Translations under genes and position numbers: made by a program
DNA from: Botryllus schlosseri
Lineage: Eukaryota
NCBI GenBank assembly: GCA_051294905.1
Contig: CM119372.1
Coordinates: 38,132,001-38,196,000, forward strand
Direction: 5' to 3'
DNA length: 64,000 nucleotides
Notes under the pieces: generated by a model
What the model was told of the DNA's origin: nothing
The model's input: only the letters and a program-made list of their open reading frames with translations
Database searches by the model: none
Part shown: piece after piece, positions 24,401 through 56,880 of the stretch
How positions within the stretch are numbered: the first letter of the stretch is position 1
Layout of the letters: every line of letters starts with the position of its first letter

Positions 24401-24695
24401 GAGACAAGTCCAGTACTTGGCTGATCTTTTTTGGACAAGGTGGAAGAAACAATACCTTCCACTACTTCAGATTCGCCAAAAATGGAATGAAAATAAAAGA
24501 AATATCACTGTAGGTGATGTCGTGCTTGTTTTGGATCAAAACCTACCTCGTAACATGTGGTTGCTAGGTCGTGTGATTGAAACCCTACCTGACAAGTCTG
24601 GGTTGGTGAGAAGCGTGAGGGTCTTTACCAAAACGAATATTTTGAAACGACCCATAAACAAATTGGTGCTTCTCTGTGAAGCTCCTGACTGTTGA
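18486..24695 (+). CDS. BEL/Pao gag-pol polyprotein (gag, three Zn knuckles, protease, RT, RNase H, integrase) with one in-frame TAA at 24201-24203
   Basis: FSGDPIEF gag motif; CFMC..H....C, CFKC....H....C, C....C...H....H knuckles; ALIDNAS protease; FYVDD RT; HHFSDAS/WTDS RNase H; HHCC + DCFGP/RSDNG/FERQI integrase; same frame resumes at 24204 with the WKKQYL...RPINKL C-terminal domain. Confidence 0.95.
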
Positions 24696-26046: not shown

Positions 26047-28918
26047 AGTTGGTAGTTCTCGACGAACACCGTGGGCAAAACATTTTTGGTTTCGATTGGA
26101 GCGATGCTTTCTCCGTGACCGCGAAGGGAACGTCTGCTTTGGATGCTATTTCCTCGCAGAAGGTCAAATCGCAATCATGTAATACTATTGACATTTGTGA
26201 TTCGAACGACAAATTGGTAGCTTTTCAGTCCAAATTTCCCTCCGTTTTCTCTAATGTGCACCAAGACAACGGTGACAATTCATTTGAAACCTAATGCCAA
26301 GCCCGAATTTAACAAGCCACGTCCTTTGCCGTTAGCAAGGCAAATCGCTGTTCAAACCGAATTGAATAGATTAGTCAATCAAGGTATCCTCGAACCAATC
26401 AATTACAGTGATTGGGCAGCACCAATTGTTGCCGTCACTAAATCTAATGGATCAGTACGCATTTGTGGTGACTTCAAAGCATTGAATCAACAAATTCAGA
26501 TAGATCAACATCCCCTGCCCTCCTTAGATGAAATTCTTCACAAGTTACAGGGTGGTTGTATTTTCACGAAAATTGATCTTGCCGATGCTTATTTTCAGCT
26601 AGAATTAGATGATGATGCGAAGAATTTGTGTGTCATCAACACGCAATTCGGTCTATTCCGCTATCGACGCATGTGTTTCGGAGTCGCATCTAGTCCCGCA
26701 AATTTTCAACGCTGTCTTGATGCCATGATCGCCGGCTTACCCGGTGTTGCTAGTTTTATCGATGACATAATCGTTACTGGCATCGATGAACGCGATCATT
26801 TTCGCAACTTATCGCTACTCTTTGAGCGCCTCACCGAATCCGGTTTCACCGTCAACTTCGTTAAATGTGAATTTTTCAAAAGTAGTATCGAGTACCTTGG
26901 TCATATAATCGACAAGGACGGCAAACGCCCGTCTAACAAATCCGTTGAAGCAATCAAACAGTTGCCTAAACCTCAGGATGTTCGCCAGCTACAGGCATTC
27001 CTGGGCAAAGTCAATTATTATCGCATGTTTATTCCTAATTTCACGAATAAAGCCGCTGCCTTGTACCGTCTTCTTCAAAAAGACGCGGAATTCATTTGGA
27101 ATACGGACTGTGACGCAGCTTTTCGCATTCTCAAAAACGACGTATTCGACGCTACGCAGTTAGCTCATTATGATGTAAACAAGCAGCTCATTTTGTCAAC
27201 TGATGCTTCTCAATTCGGAATCGGCGCTGTCCTCTCAATCGAGCACAATGGCGAAGAGAGACCGATCGCGCACGCATCGAAAACACTTTCAGATTCCCAA
27301 AAATCCTACTCTCAAATTAAGAAGGAAGCTCTGTCAATCATTTACGGAGTCACTAAATTTCGTCAATTCTTGTATGGTAGAAAATTTACGCTCGTAACGG
27401 ACCACAAACCGCTTTTAGCTATTTTCTCGCCGGACAAGAAAATTCCCGTGATTACAGCGCAACGCTTACAGCGATGGGCACTAACGCTCATAGCTTACCA
27501 ATACGATATTCGCTATAAACCAACTAATCAGCACGGAAACGCCGACGGTTTATCTCGCCTACCAAAGGGTCCAGACTCTGAGTTTGACGAAATGGAAATT
27601 CGTGAAAACGCGGAGATCGTTCACGCTATTAATATGGCATTCGATGGCTTACCGTTAACTCGCAATGAAATTCGCGACGCGACGCTGAAAGACAAAACCA
27701 TGGAACTAGTGAAATTATCTGTCACTCATGGAAATTGGAATCCAAAGACGCACATTAATGATTTTTCTTGGTTTTCGACTCGCAAACATTCGCTTTCTCT
27801 GCACGAAGACATAGTCATGCTGCTCAATATTGATGGTTTTCAGTGCGTAGTAATTCCGCAGTCACTTCGCTCGCGAGTCTTATCATTGCACGAAGGACAT
27901 TGGGGTATCGCGAAAATGAAGCAGATGGCTCGACGTTACATCGCATGGCCTTCCATTAATCGCGACATTGAAAATCTCGTTAAGAGTTGCGACGCTTGCC
28001 GTAAGGTAATGAAAGCACCTGATCGTCAGTATCGCGAATGGCCTAAAACGTCTGAAAGCTTTGAACGAATTCACTTGGATTTCGCAGGTCCAATAAACCA
28101 TAAGATGTTTCTTGTCATCGTCGATGCGCATTTGAAATATCCTTTCGTTAAATTGATGAATGTCGGTTCTAACACAACCTTATGCGTGGTCAACGCTTTG
28201 AGGGAAGTATTCTCTATCGAAGGCTTGCCCATAACAATTGTCACGGATGGCGGGCCGCAATTCACATCGAATGAATTCGATACGTTTCGCTCTAATTTGG
28301 CAATCCGCCATATCGTATCACCGTCTTTTCACCCTGCCTCGAACGGGGAAGCGGAGCGTTTCGTCCAGACTTTGAAAGCTGGATTAATAAAAAATTGCGA
28401 CGGGGAAAAGATCTCAACTTCGCGCTCCAAACGCTTCTTGCTACGTACCGATTTGCACCGCACCCGGGCATAGACTGGAAAACGCCTGCCGAGATTTTAC
28501 ATGGTCGACAGCCGCGCAATTTGTTAAGTTTGTGCTCGCCCTTCGACAAATCGAAACCCATTACGCCTGGACAACCAGTGACTCATTTCGAGATTGGTTC
28601 CTCGGTTTACGCTCGCAGTTACCGAAGCGGACCAAAGTGGGTTGCTGGCGTGGTGACGGAAATACTGGGGCGTGTTGTGTACATCATGAAACAGATCATG
28701 GGTATTGGAGGAGGCACAAAAACCAACTCCAACCACGCTTGATTTCCACTAGTCATGATACAGCCACACAGGAAGTTGCTCAGCCGCAACAGTCACAAGC
28801 TGAGCAACCATTGGTCAGACATACGGCACAACGTCCTGTAGCTAATCCTGCTCGAACGTCGGGCAGACGTTATCCGGTTAGAATAAGGAAGCAAACTGAT
28901 TTCTATCGGCCAACGTAA
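26047..28918 (+). pseudogene. Gypsy (Mag-like) pol: protease C-half, RT, RNase H, integrase; frameshifted near 26254, 28410 and 28690
   Basis: WAAPIV, RICGDFK, IDLADAY, SFIDD, TDASQFGIGAVL, LVTDHKPL, LHEGHWG..C..C, DFAGP, VTDGGPQF, NGEAERFVQT in Gypsy domain order. Confidence 0.93.
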
Positions 28919-34800: not shown

Positions 34801-36568
34801 GGTGTAGCCCAAGGCTCAGTACTTGGAACGGTTCTCTTCACCTTAAATGTCGACGACATTTTGATACCTCATCATTGAACACCACTCTGTTCGCTGATGA
34901 TACTAACCTCCTCTCTTCCGCATCTTCGGCCCTGACTAGTGACCAAATGCCCAAAGTGCATGAGTGGTCGGCCCAAAATAGCATTTGCATAAACCCCTCA
35001 AAATCCCAATTTCTGACAGTAGATTCAAAATATAATCTAACCGTTTGTAGCCGTTCGGTCGTAGTCAATATGGCTCCGGAGCCGAGCGGTTACATGTTAA
35101 CATCGCTGGTCAGCCCGTTTCCAACACAGAAAATGTCATATATCTCGGGGTTTTACTGGACTCAGGCATGTACTGGAAGAGTCGTATTCAGTCCCTATAT
35201 AGACACTAAATTATCACCGCAGTGCGGTCTGTTCTACAGCCTTAGACACTTCATGCCTGCCTGGGTTCTTCGCTGATACTCTTTAAATCCTTAATCCAAT
35301 CGAAGTTACAATATGGCATCCTCTGTTTGGGAGCTGCCAGTAAAACTGCGATCGAGCCGCTGCAAAAACTACAACATAACGTACTCCGCATAGCCAGGGC
35401 CTCGAAGGGGCCTGGTTGTCCATCCAACAAGTCGCTGCTGAAGAGATTCAGTGTCCTAAACCTTGAAGATATGCGAAAACTAGAAATCGACAAGTTTATG
35501 TATCAGTTCTACTGCGGTCATTTTGCCCCGAATATTTCAATGACTTCTTTACCTCCGAATCAAAAGCGCACAGCAAGTACAACACACGCGCGTCCAAGTC
35601 GTCCAAATATCATATGATCTACCGAAATGATCGTCGCTCTATCAAATGTGCCAGACCTGACGTGTGGAACAGTATCCCGCCGGCCATCTGACAGTCGACG
35701 AGCATCAGTGATGAGCGGATATTGAATTCTGAGAATCCGAATCCATCCGACAGCTCGAATCTTTGAGGAAATATCAGTCCAAATCCGAACAATCTCAATC
35801 AAAAATCCATGAGAATCCGAATAATGCCGTCCAGAATCCGAATCGAATAACTTTTCCAGGGAATACTATAAGTGTTCACTGTTCAGCTGAGCAGATTATA
35901 GTCTCTACAAAGGCTAAATGAGGGTTGGCTGTTTTATATTTGCTTGGACACTCGACAGAACAACTTTAGAGTGCTACCAGTACTATAAGAACGTATTTAC
36001 CGTCCATGTTTGGTTGTCGAACTTTTTCTTTTGTCTTGAAATCAAAAGTCACGTCTCGTCCGAACTATCAAAAAATATCCGATGCAGAAGTTACAACTAT
36101 CCGAAAATATCCGTAACAAAATCTGCAATACAATCCGAATCCGATCCGACTGTCTCAAAATTGTGCAAAATCCGGTCCGAACGCTATCCGAGTCCGTCCG
36201 ATGCTCATGCTCATCACTGACGAGCATATCCACATTCCAGTCGAAATAGGCTACATGCAGTTACTGATAAATAAATACTATATAATATCCATCCTCAAAA
36301 TCACCGGACCACGACCTGACCTATCGATCTCGCCATCTATGACATGCCAGCCCATTTTTTGTCGCTTGCTTTTTTCTATACTATCTTCTTCTACTTTTCA
36401 TTCAGTGTGCATGCCTCCTCTTTATATCGCCTGGCCAAGGGGGGTGTCTGATTCCATAGCCTACTCAAAGTCGCTTCGACACTTTCCTATCTTCTTATTG
36501 TATCGCATTTTTGCGGTGTATTGAACTGATAAAATTGCTAATTAACCGACGATGATGATGATGATGAT
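34801..36568 (+). mobile_element. 5'-truncated, degraded CR1/L2-like LINE (RT C-half, 3' UTR, (GAT)n tail), interrupted by a MITE
   Basis: GVAQGSVLGTVLFTLNVDD and TTLFADDTNL RT motifs; LQYGI..LG..SKTAIEPLQKLQHNVLR C-terminal region; 3' UTR shared with 4600-4945, 11885-12012 and 56720-56880 (all minus strand). Confidence 0.85.
35706..36219. mobile_element. hAT MITE with ATCCGA subterminal repeats
   Basis: TIR CAGTGATGAGC/GCTCATCACTG; perfect TSD ACGAGCAT. Confidence 0.92.
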
Positions 36569-36817
36569 ACAAACATATATTGCTATTTGAAGATGTTCTG
36601 TCTGGGTTTGTGAAAAAATAAAAATTTAGAGTAGTAAGGTCAATCAGGCTGACTTCGAAGTATTACAAGTTGTCAGTCGCAGCAAACTAGTGAGCAGTCA
36701 CTAAAAATGTTTTTTTTTAAAATCCGTTTTCTTCTGAAATATACATAACCACCATTAAAGACTAATTTCAAGATGAGCTTGTAGATAGAAATGGCTCGGC
36801 TGGACGTTCATTCAAAA

Positions 36818-37905: not shown

Positions 37906-38459
37906 CCCTATTGGAATCTCGGTATATTTTGCCTGATTCAACATGTGAGCAGCGATGATTCTTCTAGTTGAAGTAATTTAATGAAAAATATTATAAAAAT
38001 AAAACATAGTGTGAGCACAGGACACCGATTCCACTGGCATCACTTTATCAATTTTCTGTTATTCCTGTGCTGTGAAACCTGTGGTAACCTTGTACGAGCC
38101 ACCGTGCGATGAACTATTTCGTGTATCGATTAATTACCGTGGAATTCGGGGAATAACGTTCCTTTTTCAGTCTGAATCTGCTGTTTGTATAATGTTTAGT
38201 TAATAAGTAGGCACATCATCTCGCAATATTTTGCATCCATTTGCTTCTCCACGACTAGTTAACTTTGAACAGATATTATTAATTTACTATTAAGACGACA
38301 GATTTCTCGTTGCTCTTCCTGGGAACCTGTATGGAATTGGTATCCTGTGCTCACACTATGCTTTATTTTTTAATTATTTTTCATTGAATTACTTGACTTG
38401 GAAAATCATCGCTGCTCACCTGATTTATCAGGCAAAAAGGCCAGCGATTCCAATCAGGG
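37906..38459. mobile_element. Foldback/MITE with ~130-bp imperfect TIRs
   Basis: CCCTATTGGAATC...GTGTGAGCACAGGACACCGATTCCA is inverted at TGGAATTGGTATCCTGTGCTCACAC...GATTCCAATCAGGG. Confidence 0.75.
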
Positions 38460-39447
38460 CTGGGAAGTGGGAGGGGCCATTCACAGTTCCATTTGTGTGC
38501 CTTGGAGTCGATTCTTATCGAAATCCAGCCAATGCTGTGTCAACAAAATGAGCTCGTGTACCATCTAAAAATAGTACATCGAACGCTCACTTATTCGAAA
38601 TTTCATGCTGTTGAGGGTGACGTCATGTTTTTATATACAATGCTCTTTCCAATTCTCTATACCGAGTTGCCGACGATTACCCCTAACCAGTGTCAGCCGA
38701 AAATATTTGGGTTCATTTCAATATGAATGAACTATTCATATACCAATATGGAATCGGTGTCTCGTGCACACCAAAGATTCTACTGACTGCACACAGGTGT
38801 GACGCCGAGAACCGCCTTGGCACACCAAAGATATTGCGCTAAACGTACCGGGATTCCAACCTGGTTCATATACCCGTATAGAAGCATTGCTATATAAAAG
38901 AAATACTTTTGGATTCATTAAAACAATGAAAAGTTTGAAACTAAACTAACTACCCTATATAAAATTGTTAACCAGCCTAAAAAAATGCTGCCCTCAAAAT
39001 TTGGATGAAATCCAACCAGTGGAAGCGAAGTTATTGCAGTAGAACATTTTAAATTGAAAGGAAAAGTATTTACGGTGGGTAGGTCTATAATAAATAATCG
39101 AAGAATTTACCATCGTAAATACAATTTTTTTGATCCAAAATTCTGTAGTCAACTGCAAAAACTTGACTTCCACTGGTTGCAATTTGGTCAAATTTGGCGT
39201 TCGTTGTTTTTTAGATAACCTCCACATTTTATCGAGTAGCCTGTAAAATTTGAAAAAAAGTTATTTTTGAACAGCCCTAATGTCCCTGGATGGTGGAAAT
39301 TATCATTAACTATGTTCGTTACAAACAATCCTCTAATTCATCCCTTGTGTTACCAGAATTTGAATGTTCAAAACTGTAATTCACTGTATTTCTAAGCCTA
39401 CTCTCTTGTGCTTTGTGACTTGAACGTGTGAGTCGCATGGTGTCACG

Positions 39448-41019
39448 ATGTCTGTGGATGGAATGAACCTAATGGTTAGGTCGAAAGTGACGTACCAGAA
39501 TCAAGTTCTGAATCTAAACATCGACCCTGCCATTACACTTGACGATTTATGGATCAAGGTTCGGTTAGCGTGCCGATTCACAGACGCCCAGCTCTTCACT
39601 GTCAAATGGCTCGATGATGAAGGAGATCTTTGCACTGTATCTTCACAACTGGAATTGGACGAAGCTCTACGTCTGTACGAACTTAACGAGGATGACACTT
39701 TGTTTCTGCACATTTTTTCAGGCATTCCAGGAGAACCGGGCATGCAATGTCCCGGCGAGCATAAGATATACCGCCGTGGCGCTAGGCGATGGTACAAATT
39801 AAAAAGGCGCCTCAAAAAGTTGAAAGGACGCAGACAACGTATCCCAATCGTGAATCCACCTGATGATATGCCAGACCATGGTGATGATAGCTCAGCGCAC
39901 AGACCCCATTATAACCCAGCTACAGGCCTAGGAGGCGAGGTAGTACAAGGAACACCTAAAACGACACCTGGGTTTGGATTGATCGATTTTGAGATGTTAA
40001 GAGTCATCGGACGCGGGTCTTACGCCAAAGTTTTGCTTGTGAGTTTGAAGAAGAACAAAAAGCTATACGCGATGAAGGTTATCAAAAAAGAGTTGGTGAC
40101 AGATGAAGAAGATGTGGATTGGGTACAAACGGAAAAACATGTCTTCGAAACTGCTTCGAATCACCCGTTTCTCGTCGGATTACACTCTTGCTTTCAAACT
40201 CGCGAACGCCTTTTCTTTGTGATCGAGTTTGTTAATGGCGGCGATCTTATGTTTCACATGCAGAGGCAGCGTAAACTGCCAGAGGACCACGCAAGATTTT
40301 ACGCGGCCGAAATCATACTCGCACTGCATTTCCTGCACGAAAAAGGCATCATTTACCGCGATTTGAAGCTCGACAATGTCCTGCTCGATAGCGACGGTCA
40401 TATCAAGCTCACCGATTATGGGATGTGCAAGGAAGGGATCTTAAAAGGCGACACTACATCTACGTTTTGCGGTACGCCAAATTATATTGCGCCGGAGATA
40501 TTAAGAGGTGAAGACTACAGTTTTTCAGTCGATTGGTGGGCTTTGGGAGTGCTGATGTTTGAAATGATGGCCGGCAGAAGCCCGTTTGATATTATAGGCA
40601 TGACCGACAATCCAGATCAAAACACGGAAGATTACCTCTTTCAAGTGATACTGGAAAAAGTGATCAGAATCCCGAGGTCGTTGTCGGTAAAAGCTTCATC
40701 CGTTTTGAAAGGTTTTCTAAACAAAATGCCAATGGAACGCCTTGGATGCCATCCGGAGACGGGATTTCAAGATATAATCGATCATGCCTTCTTTAAAACC
40801 GTAGACTGGGACACACTACAAGCCAGACAGGTGATACCCCCCTACAAACCTCCGATTACAGACGAGTATGGTTTAGAAAATTTCGACGCTCAATTTACGG
40901 AGGAACCGGTCCAGCTTACGCCTACAAGTCCGCGTACGATATCGAAAATCGACCAGGGCGAGTTCGAAGGGTTCGAGTATATCAACCCGCTTCTCATGAC
41001 CAGTGCGGATGCGGTCTGA
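39448..41019 (+). CDS. PRKCI: Atypical protein kinase C (iota/zeta type), 523 aa, intronless, no C1 domain
   Basis: PB1 (KWLDDEGD), pseudosubstrate IYRRGARRW, kinase GRGSYAKV / YRDLKLDN / DYG / TFCGTPNY, hydrophobic motif [12 protein letters not shown]-terminal PDZ-type ending ADAV. Confidence 0.96.
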
Positions 41020-41121
41020 TCTACTGATGTGGAACTCAATGCTTTGATAGTGGTAAAAGTGTGGCTATATATTGTCGCTGTGGGATCGAATCGTCTCTGC
41101 TTCATGGAACAGAATTTGCAA

Positions 41122-41681
41122 TTGAATAGTATATTGATATTGAAATGAACCCGAGTATTTTCGGCTGTCACTCGTCAGGGGTAATCGTCAGCAACTAGTA
41201 GAGAATTCGAAAGAACAGCGTATATCAACAATCGTATCACAAAATATGACGTCACCAGCATGAAATGTCTAATACGAGAGCGTTCAATGTACTATTTTTA
41301 GATGATACACGAACTCTTTCTGTTGACACATCCTTGGCTGGTGTATTTTGATAAAAGTCGACTCCAAGGCACACAAATGAAAGTGTGAACGACCCTTTCC
41401 GAGTATGCGAAATCTGTCCTCTCGATAATTTTTTGCACAGGCGGGATTATCCAATAAGTGTTGCCCAATGCAGAATTTACGGCCTTTGATTGTTCCGCAT
41501 CAATCTTGAGCGGATGAGTTAAGGTTGAGCTTTTCGCCGAGTGTGTTCTAATGAATCTAGGTACATGTAGATTTATGGGTTCCTGCAAGTTCTCGTTTTT
41601 GACATTTCATGCTGGTGACATCATATTTTGTGATACGATTGTTGATATACGATGTTTTTTTAAATCTCTACTAGTTGCTGA
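41122..41681. mobile_element. Inverted-repeat MITE downstream of aPKC (family also at 38480-38740, 44328-44462, 51580-51872)
   Basis: 41188-41270 and 41600-41681 are inverted arms (TCAGCAACTAGTAGAG...CAGCATGAAATGTC). Confidence 0.75.
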
Positions 41682-44560
41682 GAAGCTGGAGAAGAATTTG
41701 TAAAGAAGCAAGATCTGATCACTAAAGTAATAATAACTTCATTTTTACAAAGACTCTAATGTGCTAATCTGGTTTCTACGTAATAGTTTCCTTCTGTTTA
41801 TCGCCTTCTAAAAAACGGTACACCCCCTCCACCCCCACCCCACCCGGGGCTTGAGAATACCCTAAAGAGACTGAATCTAAATAATGAAATGCTATTGATA
41901 CATTGAAGTGCTTAGTTGCCTGTAGAATCATTCACTGCGTTGTAAGTGTAGCTGGTAGACTGGTCAATTCCTCTAGTAGGTCTGGTTAAATTCAGTCTGT
42001 TTAGTAAAACCAATTTTACAACCTTTAGAAAACATTTCGGGCAGGCATGTAGCGACTAGAGATTCAAGATTCAATTCCCTTCTTTGACTATCAATGTTAT
42101 GTCACCTTTTGGATGGTGATATCTCATTGAAGCTTTGTATCATTTCGGTTAATACAAGTATGTTGACCTAAAATCATACTCTCTCTACATGTTGATTTTT
42201 TTATTCTATTATTTTAATAAATTCTCCATGTTTTGGTGAACTGCAGATGGCTTGGTCAGAAATATAGATACTGTTTCGTTGATCTCCGTTCAATATGACA
42301 CATTGCTGGCCGTGATGTTCATGTTGACTTTATTTCTTGAATCTGCGTTATGTAATGCAAATAATACCCGCAAAGTCTATTAGTCAGTGCCAGAGACTGT
42401 ATTATTAACTTGTACGCTTACGTTTACACTTTTTTGACCATTGCCCACACGCTTATATATCAATTTTCATTAACGCTGTACTACATCTTGTTTTTCTGCG
42501 TGCATTCCGTATGGAAGCATTGTAATAACTGATATATTATGTTACTATGTACGCACCCTATGGCATGCATGGCTGATACTTGATTTGATGCTAATATATG
42601 AAGGTATTTAGCATCTGACTACCGATATCCTTTCAGTGACAGTGTGCTATTTCGATCGTGTGGAATAATTGATATTGTTACCTTTACCCCGCAAATCATT
42701 CTGTTGCAGTTTCTTCTATTTCGTTGCTATTAGCTTGTAACGGTTACGTGAACGCGGACGTTGATATATCTCTCACCCTTCATCTGTCCGAAATTTGGTT
42801 CTATAGTCCTTTTTGCTATTTTTACATTGATTTTAATTCCCACTGCCGAGACACTGGTGGCAATTGTATTGTGGGAAACTAGCCTTGTATGACCCGATTT
42901 TTCGGTCTCTGCTGGTATATTTAGTCGAAATATGCTATTGCAACGCTAGAAGTACCGCTTACTAACTCAGTGTCGTGAGTTCATATATTATGTCTTACTC
43001 AAAAGATGCCTTACCACTTATATGCTCTGTTATTTCTAAGTTAAAATACTCACAACGTTATTTTTGAATCTTCAGTGAATGATTGAATTTGTATTTTCAC
43101 TTTAGATGAAGCGTTTGAATGGTAGTGTATTATAGTGGGATATCATTGATTGTGAAGCAGCCGTTTGAGAAGAAGGTAAGGAATTTCTCTAAGTTTTACC
43201 TCACTTTATGGCCTATTCATCGCTAGTTGCTATTAAAAGTGTCAATGCTTGTGTATCCGGTGGAGAACTGTACTTAGTATAAAGATATTTTATCATTGGT
43301 CCGTGGTACGATACCTGTTGTGAAGGCTCATTTGGTCTGGTTGATATGAAAATTTCACTCGCAAAAATAGTGATAATTCCACTCGCAAGTGACACAAACC
43401 AATCCATAAACCACATTCTGCTATTCATAGTACGAAAAAGTAGTTGTGCGTCAGCAGCTCTTCAAGTGAAAGTGCCCTGAAAACAAAATATGGTCAGTAA
43501 CGAGAGAGCTCGGATTAGAGCTGCACAGTTTTCGTATTAAATGTTGCAATCACAATTATACCTACATTTTAAATCATAAACTACATTACAATTGGAATTT
43601 ACACCAGCAGTTTTTATCACAAATTACATACTTAACATATTTTGAAAATTACAACACGGACAGGACAGTTCTTTCCCAAATAAGGTTAGAATTGGTATGA
43701 TAACGACGATTTTTACAAAATTGGATTACGATTAGAATTGCTTAATTCGTCAAAACTTATCATTGAATGAGATTCATAATTGGGAAATAGTGCGGCAAAA
43801 ATCGCGCTCGGTTCGTAACAAGTCGGAGTTTGTTATCAAAGTTTGCTGTGAAGCTCTGCGACGAAGAGCCATGGTAGGCCTATGCCGAACTATTAGCATT
43901 AGGTAGGTCACGATAGTAGCTTTGCAAAACGCCTCGATTTTTTCTTGATTTGCTACAGATTTGTCATACAAAAATTAGATTTATAATGAATCACTGTAGC
44001 GAAATTGTGCGATGGACAAATATACTGGAGGGGGACCAGGTAAAATCAAAATTTACCAATTAACTGTTATTTTATCAGAGAGATAAGGCCATTAAGTAAG
44101 TGCAAAGGCACTATGTTGATACTTCAGACCGAAAAAAAGGCAGCGTGTACGGTTTTATAACTACTTCCATTGGTACTTGACCGTTGGCGTAATTTTAGTC
44201 AAAACTACGCCTAGAATACTCTCTTTTCAGTTGTTCGGGAATCGCTACCTTTACTCGTACTTCGGTATTGATTTAATTGAGTTTGGAAAATGGTTGCCTT
44301 GACCTCCTCCGCTGAAAACATAGCCGCTTGAAATAAACACGACTATTTTCTGCTGAAACTTGCCAGCTGTGGTCTAATCGTTGTAACTAGCAGGGAATTG
44401 GAAAAAAATTGTCTATCAACAATCGTAGCACTAAATATGATTGACATTACCGGCATGAAAATGAATGAATATGGATATATTGTTGAAGTGTACTTCCGTT
44501 ACCTCAATTATCCAGGTCATAAATGACTTGGTTCCATATGTTACAGAACTCTGGGGCACC

Positions 44561-46773
44561 ATGGCTCTGAACTCGGAGACGTACCAAGAATTTCAGAGGC
44601 AGCTCGAACTGCAGCAGAAGTCAGACGCAGAATCGGCGACGGGAAAACCAAAAGTCAAAGTGGATGAAGATGGTACGGAATACGAATGGGACGCAGAGAA
44701 AAAGGCCTGGTTCCCAAAGTTCAACGTGGACATACTCATGAAATATCAGGGCAATTACGGACCGGTTGACCAATCTGAAACGGAACAGACTTACGTCGAC
44801 CCTGTGACGAAAGTCACATTTTTGTGGGACCTCAAGAAAAATTGTTGGGCACCGAAACCCAACGAGGACGGGACACCGTGCAGGTACACCCACGCGAACG
44901 GCACTGCGTACGTTTGGAATTTGGAGAAGAACAATTGGGAACTAGAATCTAAAGGCGAGGACTCCGACCAAAAGCCTAATTCAAGTCACGTGTACACCGA
45001 TCCTAAATCGGGGGTCGAATACAAATGGGACCCGGACAGGAACTTATGGGTGGCTGAAGACGGGAAAGTCATGTACCCCTACGCCCACAATGCCATCGGC
45101 GGAACGTCGTACACGGACCCCAAATCTGGGGTTATTTACAATTGGGACAAGGACAAAAACGAGTGGGTTGCCGATAAGCACGCCAGAAATAACAAGAGCA
45201 AAAAAAGTAAAAAAGAAGCCCCGAAAAGGAAGGCTGCCGAACCCACGTGGTTTGACCCGTCGCAGGTAATGTCATGTATGAATTCGTATCGAGTATTAGT
45301 CGTGGAGTATGCACATTGTCATTTTACAACATGATTGATGTGAAAAGTTCGAATGTGCGCCTTTTATGCAACCCGTGAAGATTCCCAATTGAGTGATTGT
45401 TCTGATGCTGATACTGATTCTGATGCTGTGTCAAACTGGGGGGCGTGACAGCATCTGAAGGAGGGGAGCGAAACTGTCTGAGAGAAATCATGTTTCTTGT
45501 ACTCAGAATCAGTTTAATTTGTGTCCAAACCTCCAAGTTTCAACAACGGCAATAACACTAAATATATTACGATTTTGAATGTCATTAATGCGTAGTACCA
45601 TCCATAAACAGATGCTAGATTTTGGCTAATAACGGACCTTGCACTGATCGGAAGAGGTCTCTGAATTTAGATCAACTGGTGAATGCGTGTAGCTGTTGGC
45701 TTATGATTATATGGCGTGTCTGTCAAGCATCTGTACAGAGTGACAGAATGACTCTGACTCGAGTCAAAACTCTATGACTCATCACTCTACTAGCTGACTT
45801 CGACTCAGACTTGACTCGGTGGCGAATTGAAAATGACTGGACTTCACTCGAGTCGAAACTATAGAAGTGAGATTGACTTGTGACTCGGAACCTTATCACT
45901 TGGTCACAACCCTGGTGCCCAGGCTGAGTTATGAGGCCTACCACAAATTTGCGCATACTCTTTAGACCTCATTGGTTGACTAAATAAATATCTCTCTTTC
46001 AGGTTAACAATACCAACGTCTACGTACAAGGGCTGCCTACCGACGTGACCATGGACGAATTCGAAGCCCTCATGTCGAAATGCGGTATCATCATGACCAA
46101 TCCTCACACGGGCAAGCCCAAACTCAAACTCTACAAAGACAAAGACGGCAATTTAAAAGGCGACGGACTTTGCTGTTACTTGAAAAGCGAGTCTCTAGAC
46201 CTGGCTTTACAGCTTTTGGATGAGTCTGACGTCAGGAACTGTAAAATATCCGTTCAAAAAGCTAATTTCGAGTTGAAAGGCTCGTACGATCCCAGTAAGA
46301 AACCGAAAATGTTAAGTAAAAAGGAGAAAGTGAAAATTCGGAAACAACACGAAACCATGTTGGACTGGCGCCTGGCCCGAAAGGAAGCTGCCAAAAAGAG
46401 CGAGCGGGTCATCATCTTTAAGAACATGTTTGACCCGAAAGAATTCGACCAGGACGCAACCCTTATCACGGACATTCGCGACGATCTTAGAACAGAGTGT
46501 GAAAAATTTGGGCCTGTCAAAAAGGTGTTGGTTTTCGACAGACACCCGGACGGGGTGTGTTCGGTCGCGTTTAAAGACTTTGACGGGGCCACGGCTTGCG
46601 TCGGGGCAATGAACGGGCGGTGGTTTGCGGAGAAGAAGGTGGAGTGTGCCCCGTGGGATGGTGTGACGGATTATCAGGTCGAAGAGACCGATAGGGAAAG
46701 GGAGGAGAGGTTGGACAATTGGGAGAAGTTCCTTAACGAGGCAGACGATAAGGAGCCGGACCAGCCAACGTGA
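44561..46773 (+). CDS. HTATSF1: HIV Tat-specific factor 1 homolog (U2 snRNP factor), 2 coding exons, 491 aa
   Basis: Exons 44561-45265 and 46003-46773 joined by a phase-0 GT-AG intron (CAG|GTAATG ... TCTCTTTCAG|G); GTEYEWDAEKKAWFPK, RRM NTNVYVQGLP...KGDGLCCYLK, UHM IIFKNMF...ECEKFG...MNGRWF. Confidence 0.94.
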
Positions 46774-46815
46774 CACGATTCTAGTGATGATTGCGCCGGG
46801 CGCGAGGGTCGTTAG

Positions 46816-48486
46816 CAGGGTTGTTATGACTCGAGTGTCTCAATCTTTTGTTCACTAGACTTGACTCGAGTCATATTCTTAAAAATGGAGAATGACTCAA
46901 CTCAGTCGATCTGTGTATGGAATTGTGTTTGAATCACTGCTTATGACATGACGGAGTCTTATGGCTCGGCACAGGCGTGTGGCCAGGGGAGTGCCGGGGC
47001 TCAAAACCCCTTCATTTTGAAATGCAAAACCCCGTCCTTTCCCGCTGGGTTAATATCGCGTCTTGGGCCTAGCATGCTGTGGCACCTATCTCGCGATGGC
47101 TTGGAGACAATGCCGTTACTTGTATGCTGATCAGCGACTGTGATTAGGGCTGGGCACAATGATTCGAGTACTCGAATCTGAATCGAGTAGTAATTTTAAT
47201 GATTCGAGTCGAGTAGTAAAAGACGATTTTTTCGAGTACTGAAATTATACGGTCCTCGCAACTGAAAGTCAATTTACTGACGAGAATTATAGTTTTGATA
47301 TTATTTTCCACTGAGGAAGCCGTGAAACCTTGATTGGCCGTGTTACAGCACACCAGGCACAGTTTAAAGCTACGAACGTTACTGGAAATAACACATTTCC
47401 GAAGTCATTATCATCCACCAAAATTGTTATGAAGTGCAATGAAATCGGTATGGTCGAAAAAATACCAAAGTATCTTTAATGTGATGGATAACAGGCATTA
47501 CGTTCTTTGTGGTGGCATAAAAGGTTCATATTTGGACTTCGACATAGTACATCCTGTTGTGACGTCATAATGAGTGATACTCGATTACTCGACTCGCGAA
47601 GCATATTACGTGATTCAGAATCGAATCACTCAGGTACTCGATTTTGCCCAGCCCTAACTGTGATCAAGGAGTGACATCGCCAAACTGAATGACATCGCAA
47701 GTCCGCAAACATGTGCGACATGTGTGCGTACATGCGTATTTCTTTTCTGCTAATGCTTGAACATAACCATCGGAAGTCGTACGTGTCAAGGCTTGAGTTA
47801 TAAAAGATGGGAAAGGTTTACACCACTTGAAATCAATGTCATTATAAGACAGATTCCGTAACAACTGAGAAATTTTGAAATGCGCAAATCGACAATGAGG
47901 CTGCGTAATACGCTTTGATAAGCGCGGGTATTTAATTATTCACGAGAGATCATGCACTCGCTAATTGACAGCAGTTCTGGACTTGTTGGGCTGGCTTATA
48001 TGCGTAAGTTCGTCAATACCAGGAGATTGTATAATCATCATTTACACATGCACTTAACAGTAATGAATTGATGCGTTATTAGTAAAATCGAAAAAAAATC
48101 GAAACCCCAGCTTTTATTTCAAACCCCCACACCGTCATTTTTCGGCTGGCTACGCGCCTATATCGGCACATTCTATATGATTCGACAATTCTCGTATTAT
48201 CAGGACCAATGGTCATAAATTAGCTACCGAAACTGTCTTTTATATGCTTAAATAAGCATGTTTAGACTGTAAAAGATGAGTGCATTGTAAATCCGAGGCC
48301 TTCGATATCTCCCAAAAGTTTCACAGAAGCCTATTGAACATGACTTGAACTCGATATTGAACAGGAAACATTATGACTCAGACTCAGTCTTAACACCATT
48401 ACTTGTACTTGGATTTCACTCCGGTGAATTGAAAATGACTCCAGTCATAACTATAAAAGTCAAATTGTGATTTGGTTACAACCCTG
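46816..48486. mobile_element. GACTCGAGTC-family hAT copy with two nested MITEs (46972-48160 and 47145-47656)
   Basis: Outer TIR CAGGGTTGT/ACAACCCTG with TSD GTCGTTAG/GCCGTTTG; middle CAGGCGTGTGGCCAG/CTGGCTACGCGCCTA; inner TAGGGCTGGGCA/TGCCCAGCCCTA with perfect TSD ACTGTGAT. Confidence 0.85.
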
Positions 48487-49717
48487 GCCGTTTGTAGGCA
48501 TGATGCTTGGGGTGTTGTTGTCCGGTTTGAGTATTAATTGGGATTTGCGGCAAGTGGGAATAATCGTACGCTGCTTTCCCTTATTATAGGTTGTTCGATC
48601 TGAGTACCGGAGTTGGTTTTGGTTGGTCTGTGTGTCTACCGGTGCCTACTGTCCCTGCGGTTTTCACATGGTCTGTCCATCAACTGCAAGGTGCGTTTTA
48701 CCTCGTTAAAGTCGTTGATGATGTCGCAGTTGGGATGATGAAATGATGGATCACGCATTTCACCAATTTGCAGAACACTTTCCAGCAAACGATCCATTCG
48801 TTAACTCTTGTCTGATGTTGAGGCGGTGAAGTCATGTCCATTCATTTATTAAAAACGTAAATAACGCTAGACTGCTATTGCACGCATTGCATATTTACTG
48901 GGTCTAACATTTGTTGCGATATCACATTAACACTGCTGTCAGCCTTGATTTTGATCAAGCATTGACCGAAACCCAGTTCGATCCGAGTTGACAATACGAC
49001 GTCGTTTATTGTGCATTGTTTGAAGTGAAAATCACATCACTCTTTCGTAGCATAGTGATCCGTTAATGTAAGGGTTACTCATAGTTTAGCTTCTAAAATT
49101 AGCAAATCATTGACCCTTTATTATCAAGTAGGGAAAAAAACGAGTAGTCGTGTACCACCTATTATGACACCGTACCAGCCTAAGTGCTTTATCTATCATA
49201 TATGTGATCCTGTCGTATGGGGCACATTTTGTGATTCTTGACCTTGTCAAGTATAGCCAACTGCGGCTGGGCTAGATCAATCCAGAACCGAAATGGCATT
49301 TCCATGAATATTACAGGCCTTTTTTTAATATGCGAAATGCTCTGGATGCTGGGTTACGACAGAGTGAGGTTTCAAGGCGCCCACGTTGTAAAGAGAGTAT
49401 CAAAACTATATATTTTCGTTACGATATTACTTTTGATGTGAAGTCGCATAATTTGAGTAGAAAAAAAATCCACACTCATTACTGACTTGAAGAATCGTTG
49501 TGCCCAGCCACTATTTCATGTATTGTGTATAACAACTCAATATCTGCAGCATTTTTTATACGTCGATGTCGCAGTTTCTCCCAATATTTTTCGGCACCGA
49601 TGTCCACATGGAAAATGCAATTCTATTCCAAGATCTCCTTCTCTTTTACAGGGTTCTCTTGTAGTCGATTAGGGTAACGTAATTACCGCCTAAGAGTGCG
49701 CGCACCATTCCGAAGAC

Positions 49718-51400
49718 ATGAAATCTGTGCGGTTCGGCGGCCGCGTCGCCCAAGTTATCAAAGAGAAAGAAGGCGGGCTCGACGATAACTACGCTATCAT
49801 CGTGCAACAACTCAGAGACCCTGATCTCCAATCTCCTCAACTTGTGGAATTACTCCAACAGTTTATCGCCGTGGTCAGCACTTTGGACAAAAGCAAAAGC
49901 GATTTGGTAGACGAAATATTGGCGGTGAACTGGGCGCACAGGGAGAGAAACGTCATGGAACTGTATCTTGACTTTTTGGTGCAGTTGATAGCACACAATT
50001 CCGTGCATCAAGCCAGAATTCTACACTGCCTGCTGATGCATTTTGTCCCTGCCGCGAGCCCTAAAAAAGACAGTGCTCCAATCGTTTGTCATGAGGATTT
50101 ATTCGAACTAGTGCATGGCGCTTTGCAAAAAATATTTACCCTAATCCCAATGACGATAGCCCTTGTAGAGCCTTTGTTGTCCAGCCGCTTTCCGTTCATA
50201 AAGAAAGAGCTTTTGATCGTGGAAAGTTACGTCAAAAACATGCTTGTCATGACCAGATATCAGCCTTCGTTAAGACGGAAAGTATTGAGTGTCATTGTAA
50301 GCAAAGTGCTTGCTCTCGATTTGCAATGTCCTAAGCATGTTATTTTGAAATCGAACGAAGACGAGGAAAGCGTATTTGAAATGGATGCGGATCGGAATCC
50401 TGGTAAGCATCAGGAAATGTACGTGGACAAGTTGGATACTCTCATGGGTATTCTGCTGCGGTACATCCGCGATAACTGCCACGCGGACGGGGTGTTAACA
50501 GGCCGATCTGACGCGATTTTTGAAGAGCTGATGTCCATTTTTGAAAAGATAGTTCTCCCTGCGTACGAATGCTCGCACACACAATTTGCGGTGTTCTACG
50601 TGTGCAGTTTTGCCGGCAAATTCCGAGAAAAGTTTCAAGAGCGCTTGTGGCTCAAGATCACGAATTTCAGCTTGCCGGTGTTGACTCGCCAAACGGCGTT
50701 ATGTTACCTCGCGAGCTTCACCTCACGGGCCAAGTTTGTGGATGCGGGAACCGCGATCGCGGTGTTAAATTCGTTGACACTTTGGATTCATTCTTATCTT
50801 AAAGAGAAGGAGACTAGTTCTTATTGCAATAGCGTGCAAGATGCTCACAAGCACGGTGTTTTTTACAGCGCATGCCAAGCTCTGTTTTATGTGCTTGTGT
50901 TTAGAGTGGATCAAATCTTGGATCTGCCCGATGGGTTTGAAATGATACGTAAAATGCAACTTGAACATATCGTCACGAGTAGATTGAACCCTCTCAAATA
51001 CTGCGTCAGGACTGTGGTCGATGTGTTTGCGAGGATTGTGAGGAAAAACCAAATTGCTTACTGCGACACGATCATTGAGAAAAATGACAGGCACACCTTG
51101 CCGATCTACGGGGTGTCTACGAAGACGGATTTAGTGAACCCTTTGGGGTCGTTTTTTCCGTTTGATCCGTACTGCTTGAAGTCTACTGCGCATTTTTTTG
51201 AGGATATCTATCGGGAGTGGGAAGGCGACGTGCCTCGCGTCGAGGATAAGGTCGAAGCGGACGAGATCGATTTTATGGAGACGGCGCCGATAAATATACC
51301 GGACATCTTCGACGAAGGAAAGATTTTGTCGGACTCGCTCTCGAAGAAGACGTTTGGGATCTCGCCTGGTTTTTCTATGACCGCGAATTCTCCGTACTGA
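49718..51400 (+). CDS. RRN3: RNA polymerase I transcription initiation factor RRN3 (TIF-IA), 560 aa, intronless
   Basis: KSVRFGG, FPFIKK, DKLDTLM, HTQFAVFYVCS, YLASFTSRAKFV, HGVFYSACQALFYVLVFR, LNPLKYC, FFPFDPY. Confidence 0.95.
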   Translation: MKSVRFGGRVAQVIKEKEGGLDDNYAIIVQQLRDPDLQSPQLVELLQQFIAVVSTLDKSKSDLVDEILAVNWAHRERNVMELYLDFLVQLIAHNSVHQARILHCLLMHFVPAASPKKDSAPIVCHEDLFELVHGALQKIFTLIPMTIALVEPLLSSRFPFIKKELLIVESYVKNMLVMTRYQPSLRRKVLSVIVSKVLALDLQCPKHVILKSNEDEESVFEMDADRNPGKHQEMYVDKLDTLMGILLRYIRDNCHADGVLTGRSDAIFEELMSIFEKIVLPAYECSHTQFAVFYVCSFAGKFREKFQERLWLKITNFSLPVLTRQTALCYLASFTSRAKFVDAGTAIAVLNSLTLWIHSYLKEKETSSYCNSVQDAHKHGVFYSACQALFYVLVFRVDQILDLPDGFEMIRKMQLEHIVTSRLNPLKYCVRTVVDVFARIVRKNQIAYCDTIIEKNDRHTLPIYGVSTKTDLVNPLGSFFPFDPYCLKSTAHFFEDIYREWEGDVPRVEDKVEADEIDFMETAPINIPDIFDEGKILSDSLSKKTFGISPGFSMTANSPY

Positions 51401-54400
51401 CGGAATCCCTGCAGCCAATTCGAAGTGTCCGGCGTGTGACTCGCTTGTTGATCAACTGTGCCAAGGTGGCGAGTCACAGGGCCGGACATCATCGGGGTAT
51501 CTGGGTCATTCGATTCCGAGTCCAGTGTTCGAGCACCACCTATTTTGACGCCGTATCATGACTCCTGGAGATACAGAACTTCAATATACACTTGAAATAC
51601 ATCTGGATATTTTCGGCTGGCGCTTGTCAAGACTAAGCGTCTGTAACTACTGTTGATTTCAAAAGAGTCGGGAGTTGCACTGGTATCAGTTTGTGTATAA
51701 TCTGCCATGTCTTTCACCTCTAAAATTCAAAATTTCGAAGCGGGTAACATGATTATTCGGTGATGCCACTGTTTATCGACAAAGCTCTTTAGAAATCTCT
51801 ACTGACGATTACCCCTGGCGAGTGTCAGACGAATGTATTCGGGTTTATTTCAGTATGTTTATATTATTCAATGGTATAATGACTTGAAGGGTTCAAATGT
51901 GGTATGTATTTTTCTACGAAACGATGTCGGCGATCCAAAATAATGATGGTGGTATTTCTGGGACACCATTTCGTAGCGCTTTTTGTTGATAAAATGTTAC
52001 CCTTGGTTTGAATGCGGATATTTTCTTTACTCGCGAAAAATGACTCAAACCATTACAATCAAGACTCGACTCTGAGACGGGTACTAGAATCTTTGTTCCC
52101 GGCACTACTCATCATCTCGATATGTAGGCTACGGTCCGACTTTCGTGGCTGCGAACGTCGATTTCATTTTGTCTGATCTTTTTGGCTGAGTGCAATGCAT
52201 TTCAAGTACAATGCTCACTTTTTCTGTCAAAATTAGTAAAAAATGATCTAGTAAGCTGCTTAAGATACCAATTCAAAATTGCTGCTCTTCAAAATGTATA
52301 TAAATGTCATCAATTCAAGTACAAGGGCATTTTATAAACTCCACAAACATGTACTCCTTACCAACTCGTGCTTTGACATTGAAAGCTTTGATAAAGACGA
52401 ATCTCCTTTCTCGTTCAGACCGCCTTCTGCCCATGCAAATATCATACGAGACGAATAGCCTTGAATATTTGCTTGTGAGAATGTGGTACTTTTAGCTACG
52501 GAATTGTAATTTTGCCCTGTTTGTTACTTATAAATACCAGTTGTACCGACCTAAACTAATCATGTTGCGAACAATTGATACTGTGTCACAATTTGGCATA
52601 ACATACCATGCCAGCCCTATGGTCTTGTCCTTCCCAATCATGCATTGAAAATTGTACTGAAGCAAAATACCTTATTCCAATAATCCGTCGGTGCTAATCT
52701 TGTATAATACAAACTATGCCTTTTGCAGTTCAAATTCTATATTCGATTCAATTTATGGCACAACGCGGTCTTTCGTTGTATAAGGAATTCAATGTGATTC
52801 GAATTCTTGCCTAATCACATGTTATCCTTGGATTGGCAATTTCCGTTTATTTGCAATAACATGGTTGATTGTATTGGTGATTTGGCTGCTTTGTAAAGGG
52901 TTTCACATGATTTTTTGGCATTATTGATGTTTAAAACGAAGTAAATTTCATTGTGGTAATTTTTCATTGTAATTTTTCATCATCAATACCAATTTGCAAG
53001 ATATTCTGTTGAGTTTGTTTTTCAATTTTCCGTCTATTGCTGCTGTTATTTTGGTTTGTAAGTTGTTGGAATCTGCACCATTCATGAGTACTTGAACAAT
53101 AATTGATGTGTTTTCTGTAGTGTTGATCATAAGAATTATTCCATTGGTATGGAAAGCTGCATTTCAACAAGAAATTGTTGGAGCGTGTGAGTTTTGAATA
53201 TATTTTATTATATACGAAGCTCGACTATGGCTAATTGGCTATTTCGTGCTGCTTATACCTGACTGATGGTTCTTCCAATTGCGTCTTTCGAACTTTAGTG
53301 AATCCCAAACGATATGGCCCAAACATTTAAAATCGCGATAACATTGACAAATATTAATATCATAGTCAAAAGGAGCTGCATGCACAAAACATGACTCTCT
53401 CAATATTTGCAGGGAGTTAATCGAAGTATTGGAATTTGCTGCTCTAGAGTAATGTACAAGGCACGTCTTTGAAAAGCATACAGGCTACATTAGCATTCAG
53501 CAACTAGTGTCTCACTACACTTGTAATGAAAAGTACATAACTATGGGTTAACTACCTACCATATCGTTGATTGAGAGTTACAGATTTTTTTGTTTTATAA
53601 AATGTTGGTAAGTTATTGGTTTAGATTTGTGAAGAATGTTTTTCTGTGCCTTCAGGTCACATTTTAATATCATTATGCAGGCGTACTCTTGCATTGACTA
53701 TTTATTAGAATTGTTGTGCCATTCGCGTTGATATTCCTTTGCTGCTTGCTACGGTTTTGAGTATCTGAAGTTCTGAGCTCTCTGCATGCCACAGTTATTC
53801 ATCTTATGCTCAATTGCATTGGCGCTGGTTTCAGTCACAGGCCCAACCTGATTTGATTTACTACAATAGCTTTATCCATTATGAAATTTTACCTTCATAA
53901 TATTGGCGTATTAAGCACAACTACTGCACCACAGGACTTGGCGGCTCCGCGCTAAGTTTTCTTTGGGGTAGAGCCTGCTGGTAATTAAGCAGCATCCCTG
54001 TGTATAGGATCTATTTTGGCCTCAACTTCCAGGAAAAATAGTTCATATTGGCATTCGGAAGTATTATGGTACCGGTTTTGGCTTCTTCAAATTTATAAAT
54101 CTTCGAACAGCGACAATTCTTATGTATCCAATAAGACGTTTTGCAAATGCTGGATTGCGGTATGTAATTTTTTTTTCAATTTTGAACGCAATTAATTGAT
54201 GCCGTCATGATGGTAAAATGGCACTATGTTCTCCAGCCATAGGATTAGATTTCCATCCATCGCTTGCCAGTTGTGTTCTGGACTCCCCCACGCTAGCATG
54301 CCATACATACAAATACAAATATCCGCCCTTTTTAACGAAATATGAATGCCAAGCCCTTGCGTGGTAAAGTTGAAACAGCCAGAACCCGTTTCATATCGGT

Positions 54401-54672
54401 CTCTATGTTGTTAGTGACAGATTTGTGGCGAAGTGTTGGACCTGGGGCCGCATAGTATTGAAATCATGCAATACGTTGTGATGTGAAAGTTTACTGGCAA
54501 TTTACGATTTCATCTCATGCGAGTGTATATCTACTGCGTGTTTTCTCGTTTGATCTTCGAATTTCGAAGTAGGCTTACCGAATATCGTGTCAAATCTGAC
54601 AGTAGTGGTTTAATCGCGAATAATGTGTGATTTTTGTTTTCGGGCTAGTGTCAAATCTAATCTATTTAAAAC

Positions 54673-55590
54673 ATGGCTCCTCTGGATTTGGATCGTATGA
54701 TCGAGGTGGAACGCGAGTGCAAATACTTGCCCGAGAACGACTTGAAGAAACTATGCGATTACGTTTGCGATTTGCTGTTGGAAGAATCCAACGTGCAGCC
54801 CGTATCTTCGCCAGTTACTGTGTGCGGGGATATACACGGGCAGTTCTACGATCTCCTCGAACTGTTCAGGACGGGGGGTGAAGTGCCGGAAACCAACTAC
54901 ATATTTATGGGAGATTTTGTGGACCGCGGATACTTCAGTTTGGAAACGTTTACTTATCTGCTCACTTTGAAAGCGAAATATCCGGATAAAATCACACTGT
55001 TGAGAGGTAATCACGAGAGCAGGCAAATTACGCAGGTGTACGGTTTTTACGACGAATGTCAAATGAAGTATGGCAACGCTAACGCTTGGCGTTACTGCAC
55101 CAAAGTGTTTGATTTGCTTACTGTCGCCGCTATCATCGATTCTTGTGTGTTATGCGTACACGGTGGTTTATCCCCCGACGTGAAAACCTTGGATCAGATA
55201 CGTACCATCGATCGTCAACAAGAGATTCCCCACAAAGGAGCGTTCTGCGATTTGGTTTGGTCCGACCCTGAAGACGTGGAAACCTGGGCTATCAGCCCTC
55301 GCGGCGCAGGCTGGCTGTTTGGAGCTAAAGTCACGAACGAATTCGTTCACCTCAATAATCTACGGCTGATTTGCCGCGCGCACCAGCTGGTTCACGAAGG
55401 ATACAAGTACATGTTCGATGAGAAGTTGGTTACCGTTTGGTCGGCGCCGAACTATTGTTACCGCTGCGGTAATATCGCTTCGATTTTGGTGATACGCTCG
55501 TCAGACGACAGGGAAGCGAAGCTGTTTCGCGCCGTTCCGGATAACATGAGGGTCATACCGCCTAGGAACACGGCACCATACTTTTTGTAG
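54673..55590 (+). CDS. PPP6C: Serine/threonine protein phosphatase 6 catalytic subunit, 305 aa, intronless
   Basis: MAPLDLD N-terminus, GDIHG, GDFVDRG, RGNHE, SAPNYC, C-terminal PYFL. Confidence 0.98.
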
Positions 55591-56719
55591 AGGGCATTGT
55601 GGCATTCAGAAGTATATTTATAAACCGTAATCGATCTCGCGAGGCCAGACACAGGCCGTGGATTTATCGCGCGTACAGGCCAACGCGATGGTGTTGACTA
55701 GGGCTGACCAAAATTGAGTACCTGAGCTGAATATTAAGCTTCCTGTATCACATACTGCGACGCTTTAACAGTAAGCCAGTAACAATGACTTGAAAAGTTG
55801 AGACATGTGATAATGATACGTCTCTTTTTTAAGGAAACAAGGACAATGATGCCAGTTACATGTCATCCAAATTAATTTGTATTTCATAGCGCCTTGTGTC
55901 TGTGTATAATGTATATTTGTAGCCTTGTGCAAGAAACATGCATTCGCTAACTGAGGTTTTGAGGCCTCGAAAGTATAGATAAAGCATTGAGAAATACATA
56001 TTCCATCCCTAGCGGTTATATCAAGGCTGGATTTCCGCTGTAATTCTACTTTTTGGACTGTGCTGATACGAGGTTGGCAGAAAATCTGTGTCGGAACTGT
56101 AGGCTACCTGCCGCGATACAGGATCGACATTAATTGCATGTCGACAGCTCATTCTTGTGTAAAGCTTGTTGCGATATATTTCACTCGTCATTTATTTTAT
56201 TTTTGTTGCGTATCTATTCAAGTTTGGTGTTTGACCAAATCGATACGTAATGATTCGTGCGATTATCGCCTTGATTCTAAAATGCTTCATAATTCACAAT
56301 GGGTTTGTGAGCTGTTATTTCTTATGGCGATGATAAATGCATACGACATTGACTATCCTTTGCATCGTCTTAGTTTCGAGGGTTGTCATTTAAGAAACAA
56401 AGCTTAGTAGGCAGGTTGGTTGGCATCACACGCGGACTATTGTCGGAGTATGATGTAATCTGAGTTTCTTAAATGAAAGGAGTGAAGGCAAGGCCATAAT
56501 ATATAAATGAGTATCAGGGCGGAGTGGAAATAACTTTATTTTTCAAATCGAAAGAAGGGGGTCCATAAATCCAAACAAATGACCTGAAACTTCAATAAAA
56601 ATTGAATTTTCCAGTTATCAACCCCCAATTTCTGCGTAACACGGGGTAAAATTGGCCGTCTCGACAACCACTGGTTGTACATGTACATTGTACAACAGTC
56701 ATAATATATAGCTCAAAAG

Positions 56720-56880
56720 CTTCCAAAACATCATTTTCTATCTGGAAAAAGCAAGCGACTAAGATGGGATGACATGTCATGGAAGGCGATATCAAAAGGT
56801 CAGGTCGTGGTCCGGTAATCTTGATGGCGGGCTAGTATTCATGTAGTAGAAATTGCTTGTAGTTCGACTTGAAGTCAGTT
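56720..56880 (-). mobile_element. CR1/L2-like LINE 3' fragment
   Basis: Minus strand FKSNYKQFLLHEY* followed by the shared CAAGATTACCGGACCACGACCTGACC motif. Confidence 0.65.

Follow-up and report, generated by a model that had tools for sequence, protein, structure and literature searches.

Where aPKC takes its affinity for the membrane from is under dispute. In one account, set out in passages of PMC10435729, the C1 domain is required and sufficient; in fly neuroblasts the pseudosubstrate proves insufficient, and aPKC deprived of C1 is cytoplasmic and deregulated. In the other, the polybasic pseudosubstrate is crucial: it binds PI4P and PIP2, is exposed by Par6 and can target aPKC alone (10.1101/588624, in the sections available). 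Pseudosubstrate and C1 have also been described as a joint surface and called an invariant platform (part of PMC10333572). Tyr136, the centre of the PB1–C1 linker strand and a regulatory phosphosite, is given as 97% conserved in passages of PMC10754278 and PMC10333572. For ascidians, the accessible parts of two studies place Phallusia aPKC at the cortex, at the CAB (PMC5640700), and describe the aPKC of the Ciona notochord as polarised together with Par3 and Par6, its localisation depending on Par3 (PMC7661463).

Here, we describe an aPKC of Botryllus schlosseri that lacks C1, encoded in a 64-kb stretch of DNA (hereafter the window). Tunicates are the sister group of vertebrates, and a vertebrate sister group that polarises aPKC without any C1 domain offers a test case from nature for the dispute between C1 and pseudosubstrate. 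A natural swap experiment is at hand, using embryos of Ciona or Phallusia as well as fly or human cells, and ascidian aPKC data should not be interpreted by the C1 model. Sequences of C1-less ascidian aPKCs are already public. In the searchable literature we found no published remark on the ascidian C1 loss, the primary ascidian aPKC papers, where a mention is possible, being left aside; a term look-up in the two Cobbaut papers (the review's Table 1 aside) returned no tunicate names, and the portions of PMC2966392 and PMC5470649 available to us contain nothing on C1 loss.

The aPKC gene of Botryllus schlosseri and its domain layout

The coding sequence is a single exon of 523 residues plus the stop codon, lying in a stop-to-stop frame at 39424-41019 on the forward strand, the first Met of which is at 39448 (Table 1). 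The catalytic and regulatory motifs of the protein are intact. Those of the kinase domain include a set of 15 residues, the activation-loop Thr339 and RIPR, and the C-tail carries the turn motif QLTP, the acidic hydrophobic motif FEGFEY and a C-terminal DAV of the PDZ type. Pfam and motif positions thus agree with the first-pass annotation of this DNA that PB1, the kinase motifs, the hydrophobic motif and the PDZ-type C-terminus are retained. The WLDDEGD motif of PB1 presumably has a Par6-binding role, and in the pseudosubstrate alignment Ala112 corresponds to A129 of the human protein. With PRKCI/PRKCZ, Drosophila aPKC and C. elegans PKC-3, the protein shares the PB1 acidic motif, the pseudosubstrate, the kinase motifs, the activation-loop and turn-motif Thr, the acidic hydrophobic motif, RIPR and the PDZ-type ending, and it is about 67% identical overall to vertebrate iota. 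Nevertheless, it differs from these canonical aPKCs in three respects: C1 and its Zn ligands are missing, the linker strand RKLYCA is replaced, with Tyr136 changed to Lys, and the segment after the pseudosubstrate is more basic by about five charges.

Table 1. Coordinates of the aPKC gene and of its parts in the window.
Feature	Position	Strand	Residues	Basis
aPKC coding sequence	39448..41019	+	523 aa + stop	single exon
PB1 domain	39475..39717	+	10-90	Pfam PF00564, E=2.6e-10; pLDDT 87-96 over aa 11-90
Acidic WLDDEGD motif in PB1	39607-39627	+		motif position
Pseudosubstrate IYRRGARRW	39766..39792	+	107-115	match to human PKC iota
Tunicate-specific basic segment	39793..39849	+	116-134	alignments, composition, predicted structure
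Cys-free linker, site of the missing C1	39850..39990	+	135-181	variable among tunicates; predicted disordered
Kinase domain	39991..40794	+	182-449	Pfam PF00069, E=1.2e-65
AGC C-tail	40855..41016	+	Pkinase_C 470-511	Pfam PF00433, E=8.2e-11

The first-pass annotation had marked 39763-39985, which is aa 106-180 within this single frame, as an aPKC in which no C1 stands between pseudosubstrate and kinase. It expected a Pfam scan to return PB1, Pkinase and Pkinase_C without C1_1, and the outcome was exactly this: among all nine families at E<=1, only Pkinase, Pkinase_C and PB1 form the layout, and neither C1_1 (PF00130) nor, as for an atypical PKC, a C2 domain is found. None of the eight Zn ligands of the canonical C1 is present. 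The pseudosubstrate and the Gly loop are separated by 71 residues with no Cys, compared with 85-282 residues in 149 C1-bearing homologs (a count drawn from 182 proteins, 172 of which have both motifs). The best PDB match is full-length human PKC iota (9ejk_B, 786 bits), which aligns with query residues 9-118 and 167-521 and with nothing between; PKC iota takes all ten best PDB rows, at 644-786 bits, and the PKC next in rank reaches 391 bits. The protein is an aPKC by descent, having PB1, an RRGARRW pseudosubstrate, an iota/zeta-type kinase with an acidic hydrophobic motif and no C2, but not by the full domain definition, as the single atypical C1 is missing.

The junction was examined in eight of the 24 sequencing runs listed. 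A contig from X6 spans 39688-40103 with one difference and no gap, and contigs from three further studies (X13, X14 and X17, of which it is only a guess that they are RNA) are also gapless across the junction. Single-cell run X23 contributed 43 reads that share one orientation, with a depth of 7-12 over 39788-39970 and no joints listed. The gene is transcribed, and an assembly deletion is ruled out by the gapless contigs from four studies together with the single-cell reads. Depth at the junction was zero in the bulk run X24 and about 1 in X22, and X21, labelled as another organism, gave five partial reads, so that expression is low in those samples. The frame is open with no evident intron, as first annotated; a hidden intron or a displaced C1 exon was rejected, since the reads over the ORF have no joints listed, no frame of the 64-kb window contains a C1 pattern and the C1 search of the genome returned no aPKC-type C1. 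Of 98 differences, 40 were inspected, of which 30 lie inside the ORF; 28 of these 30 are synonymous and the other two fall within one codon.

In the Botryllus genome itself, the full-length aPKC gave 22 matches, the next best being 39% identical to the query; this second match we take to be an RSK-type kinase. The kinase core returned exon-sized matches at <=68% identity (best 150 of 434 candidates), and the PB1-pseudosubstrate portion matched the aPKC gene itself and one further site at E=0.5. With a canonical aPKC C1 as the query, 14 matches were obtained, the best 38-40% identical and none above 40%. Three of them adjoin multi-exon kinase loci on C6 and C11, presumably conventional and novel PKCs, which indicates that other PKCs of this species (three genes) retain C1. 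No second aPKC or canonical paralog, for which the first-pass annotation had advised a search, was found by the full-length, best kinase-core, PB1-pseudosubstrate and C1 searches, and the gene is likely the sole aPKC gene of Botryllus schlosseri. A review likewise gives Ciona a single aPKC (PMC7104321, in part). The natural C1-less aPKC that was first proposed is thus borne out: no C1 was detected, the assembly has no gap, the locus is transcribed and a canonical paralog was not found.

Loss of C1 among tunicates and its origin

A homolog search gave 3827 hits; among the 120 listed, 104 carry PF00130 and 16 do not. Eleven of the 16 (ranks 1-10 and 12) have the junction of the window protein, and the same 11 C1-less proteins rank on top when aa 1-140 are used as the query; the remaining five, gene models from vertebrates or tick, break off at QAKRFNR. 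Those C1-less hits that carry a species name come from Clavelina, Phallusia, Ciona intestinalis and Ciona savignyi, and the aPKC of Styela clava enters as a member of the cluster of an 87% hit. A Pfam rescan found no C1 in ten out of ten such relatives. A tree of 40 rows, built from the kinase domain and C-tail only, unites the 18 C1-less rows of tunicate type in a single clade (100/99). In it the window protein stands beside Styela, a placement that points to a styelid ascidian as the likely source. The loss of C1 is common to ascidians: the alignment to related aPKCs that the first-pass annotation had recommended shows it at the same junction in five named species (Styela, Clavelina, Phallusia and two Ciona), every named tunicate retrieved, so that a species-level oddity is not supported. 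Compared with Phallusia AAX89404.1/Q52PI7, Ciona XP_002128901.1, Styela XP_039270879.1 and Clavelina XP_076807790.1, the window protein is 74-87% identical, belongs to the same clade and shares the C1 loss, the junction and the basic helix, the only difference being the length and sequence of the linker.

A further mark of the group is found in the kinase domain, where R278K, D293E and N367H (iota numbering; aa 205, 220 and 294 of P0001) occur in all 21 tunicate rows, D293 showing no variation among the 44 others. Cluster representatives at 50% were searched with a profile (56 of 150 rows inspected), which led to a divergent C1-less aPKC, P0202, and a follow-up search to P0347. In both, the pseudosubstrate is followed by a basic run, and two of the three kinase substitutions are present. 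Under LG+G4 they fall together with the tunicate rows (93/82, not starred), and in the mixture model their position is not resolved, the styelid and other ascidian rows also being unjoined. Both lie on long branches, and their C-termini, LVNN and NDIS, are without the usual terminal Val of a PDZ-binding motif. P0202 and P0347 may, as a guess, be appendicularian aPKCs; a search for literature on the appendicularian (Oikopleura) status returned two papers, both on unrelated matters. The C1-less protein is a real variant of aPKC and is likely tunicate-wide, and the shared junction and clade suggest that C1 was likely lost once, in a tunicate ancestor.

Similarity between tunicate and canonical aPKCs stops near KRFxRR (KRFKSRR in Clavelina). 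The vertebrate PRKCI/PRKCZ C1-skipping models P0015, P0016, P0086 and P0120 break after QAKRFNR, as does the tick model, and these breaks fall within about 1-3 residues of the end of tunicate similarity. The shared break point likely marks an old exon boundary, as far as can be judged from aligned sequences. The vertebrate C1-skipping models and the engineered fly aPKC delta-C1 resemble the window protein in that the C1 core is absent; however, the vertebrate models keep the canonical KLYxxNGHxFQA, have 5-6 K/R where tunicates have 8-10, and coexist with full-length forms. On the simplest account, the loss likely started with the C1-coding exon and the upstream residues were remodelled later. 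An ancient origin from an exon-skipped transcript is possible, and genomic deletion and retro-replacement are indistinguishable from these data.

A different matter is whether the gene could be a recent retrocopy, a pseudogene or the product of an assembly deletion, a canonical aPKC being located at another place in the genome. The absence of introns, the existence of the vertebrate C1-skipping models and the LTR retrotransposons 11-21 kb upstream would agree with such an origin, but we regard it as very improbable, as independent contigs and reads span the junction, neither a paralog nor an aPKC-type C1 was found in the genome, nearly all listed differences in the frame are synonymous and five named ascidian species have the same junction. 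The suggestion in the first-pass annotation that the gene might be a retrocopy of an exon-skipped mRNA fails, as far as a recent event is meant, for the same reasons: no intron-bearing parent was found, the frame is open and the loss is shared by ascidians. Intronlessness was also set aside as a sign of a special retro-event, being non-specific here. Five of the six genes downstream of aPKC in the window are single long frames, as are those for Par6, TFG, MEK5 and RSK; with single-frame genes so common in this genome, an intronless aPKC says little. The Ensembl Ciona model P0007 has a 67-residue Cys-containing insert in the linker, which resembles a translated intron rather than a C1 and hints at an intron in the Ciona aPKC gene.

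The segment in place of C1 and its possible function

The pseudosubstrate IYRRGARRW is followed by a segment of 19 residues and then by a Pro/Asp/Gly-rich linker. A column comparison of 21 tunicate rows with 44 others shows that the tunicate rows have none of the eight Zn ligands and none of the NGHxF residues, that R133 has become Tyr in 20 of the 21, and that Tyr136 is Lys in every one. The 18 residues after the pseudosubstrate contain 8-10 K/R in tunicates versus 5-6 in the others. In 14 of the 21 tunicate rows, near-duplicates being left out, the basic-hydrophobic (BH) index is 1.13-1.52 and the net charge +11 to +14, compared with 0.83-1.11 and +7 to +9 in 160 C1-bearing rows; the charge of the segment is thus higher than in canonical aPKCs. 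The BH scale used here agrees well with the published one, bat iota scoring 0.94 with it versus a published 0.92. The window segment has a BH index of 1.47, a net charge of +14 and a hydrophobic moment of 0.72; the moments are higher in tunicates (0.53-0.84) but overlap with those of canonical aPKCs (0.26-0.70). The description of C1 as replaced by a polybasic stretch accordingly stands in part: the segment is more basic, but no foreign sequence of the same length has been put in. The segment aligns with the linker strand and with the KRFxRR loop opening the canonical C1, and it probably descends from these in remodelled form.

The AlphaFold2 model (107 sequences) has a confident PB1 and kinase domain, a helix at 107-125 with a pLDDT of about 50-70 and predicted disorder at aa 126-172 (pLDDT <50); an earlier structure model from 65 similar sequences had a mean pLDDT of 50 and was unusable. 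The predicted amphipathic helix places its hydrophobic residues at W115, L118, L122 and L125, in a conserved i, i+3, i+7, i+10 spacing within the basic segment. It is likely, judging from the model, that the pseudosubstrate continues into a conserved basic, amphipathic helix. After the basic run, a tail of the form [RQ][IV]P[IV] is kept in all 21 tunicate rows, the rest of the linker being unconserved.

We consider it fairly probable that this extended helix supplies the lipid affinity that formerly came from C1, binding anionic membrane lipids in its place, a proposal drawn from sequence features. While the kinase is closed, the half of the helix formed by the pseudosubstrate would occupy the active site, and the basic face would be hidden. 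Binding of Par6 to PB1 would release the helix, as in fly and mammalian aPKC (Dong et al.), and the released, longer helix could hold the kinase at a cortex rich in PI4P, PIP2 and PS without C1 or the PB1–C1 linker strand. The Tyr136 phospho-switch itself is absent, the residue being Lys throughout the tunicate rows. As the helix has no Ser/Thr, phosphorylation by aPKC would not directly switch it off. The basic-hydrophobic motifs of Lgl and Numb, with BH indices of 1.00 and 0.89 in the part of 10.1101/588624 available, are matched or exceeded by the window segment, which, unlike them, is fused to the pseudosubstrate within a kinase. A Phallusia aPKC cut up to K146, a residue confirmed in the Phallusia sequence P0005, was used as a dominant-active construct and reduced cell adhesion (passages of PMC5319837); the result is compatible with restraint by a C1-less N-terminus, the passages seen containing no full-length control.

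Alternatively, C1 could simply be dispensable, the kinase reaching the cortex through Par3 and Par6–Cdc42 and the helix serving mainly as an autoinhibitory contact on an acidic kinase surface or as an NLS. The Par3-dependent localisation in the Ciona notochord, where Par3 acts upstream of aPKC (PMC7661463, in part), means that protein partners could do the job of C1. In canonical aPKC, C1 represses activity (passages of PMC10435729 and PMC7104321), the three kinase substitutions are present in every tunicate row, and R128/R129 align with the NLS residues R150/R151 (part of PMC10754278). The substitutions are conservative, however, and the hydrophobic spacing and the high BH index suit a membrane helix, so that we regard dispensability as rather unlikely. 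Still less probable is that the segment is mainly a protein-docking site, either a calmodulin-binding helix that overlaps the pseudosubstrate and confers control by Ca2+, or a MAPK D-motif made up of the basic cluster and the I-P-I tail. The resemblance of helix and tail to these motif types is our own assessment, and the tail is kept throughout the tunicate rows despite an otherwise unconserved linker; yet motifs of both types are degenerate, P0202 and P0347 lack the tail as such, and neither a binding prediction nor a paper supports docking.

Returning to the membrane helix, its most general form would be that Par polarity operates throughout the tunicates, perhaps in appendicularians as well, with an aPKC that has neither C1 nor the PB1–C1 linker strand nor the Tyr136 switch. 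A single basic helix, fused to the pseudosubstrate and linking autoinhibition with membrane binding, would stand in for the supposedly invariant two-part membrane platform, and the change would have escaped comment although ascidian models are in wide use. For this whole statement we see the chances as evenly balanced.

Surroundings of the gene and other PB1 genes

A Par6-like gene with a PB1 domain was found in the genome (L030, G000:C4:27752085). It and three other genes (L029, L032 and L002) are each a single long open frame; we take the four to be Par6-, TFG-, MEK5- and RSK-like, respectively. Three further PB1 matches of like size and score (L034, L035 and L036) lie on G000:C15 at 12.07, 12.08 and 7.23 Mb; L034 and L036 resemble each other and are presumably p62/SQSTM1-like copies.

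Upstream of aPKC, the window contains a BEL/Pao-type LTR retrotransposon (18432-24695, forward strand), with a 1923-residue frame, a stop and then a final frame of 163 residues, and a Gypsy-like pol fragment with RT, RNase H and integrase (26221-28473, forward strand). High-copy repeats occur on both sides of the gene, at about 36234-36700, 38340-39275 and 40914-41850, and reads that join 38534-38694 to 41199-41334 indicate related repeat copies on either side of it. Further downstream, housekeeping genes, most of them in one open frame each, are closely packed in a run over 44465-63634 on the forward strand. We take them, some of the names being tentative, to be an RRM protein (HTATSF1-like, in two frames), RRN3, a PP6-like phosphatase, an HflX/GTPBP6-like GTPase, a DTW-domain protein and a TMEM186-like protein; the run could be an operon-like cluster.
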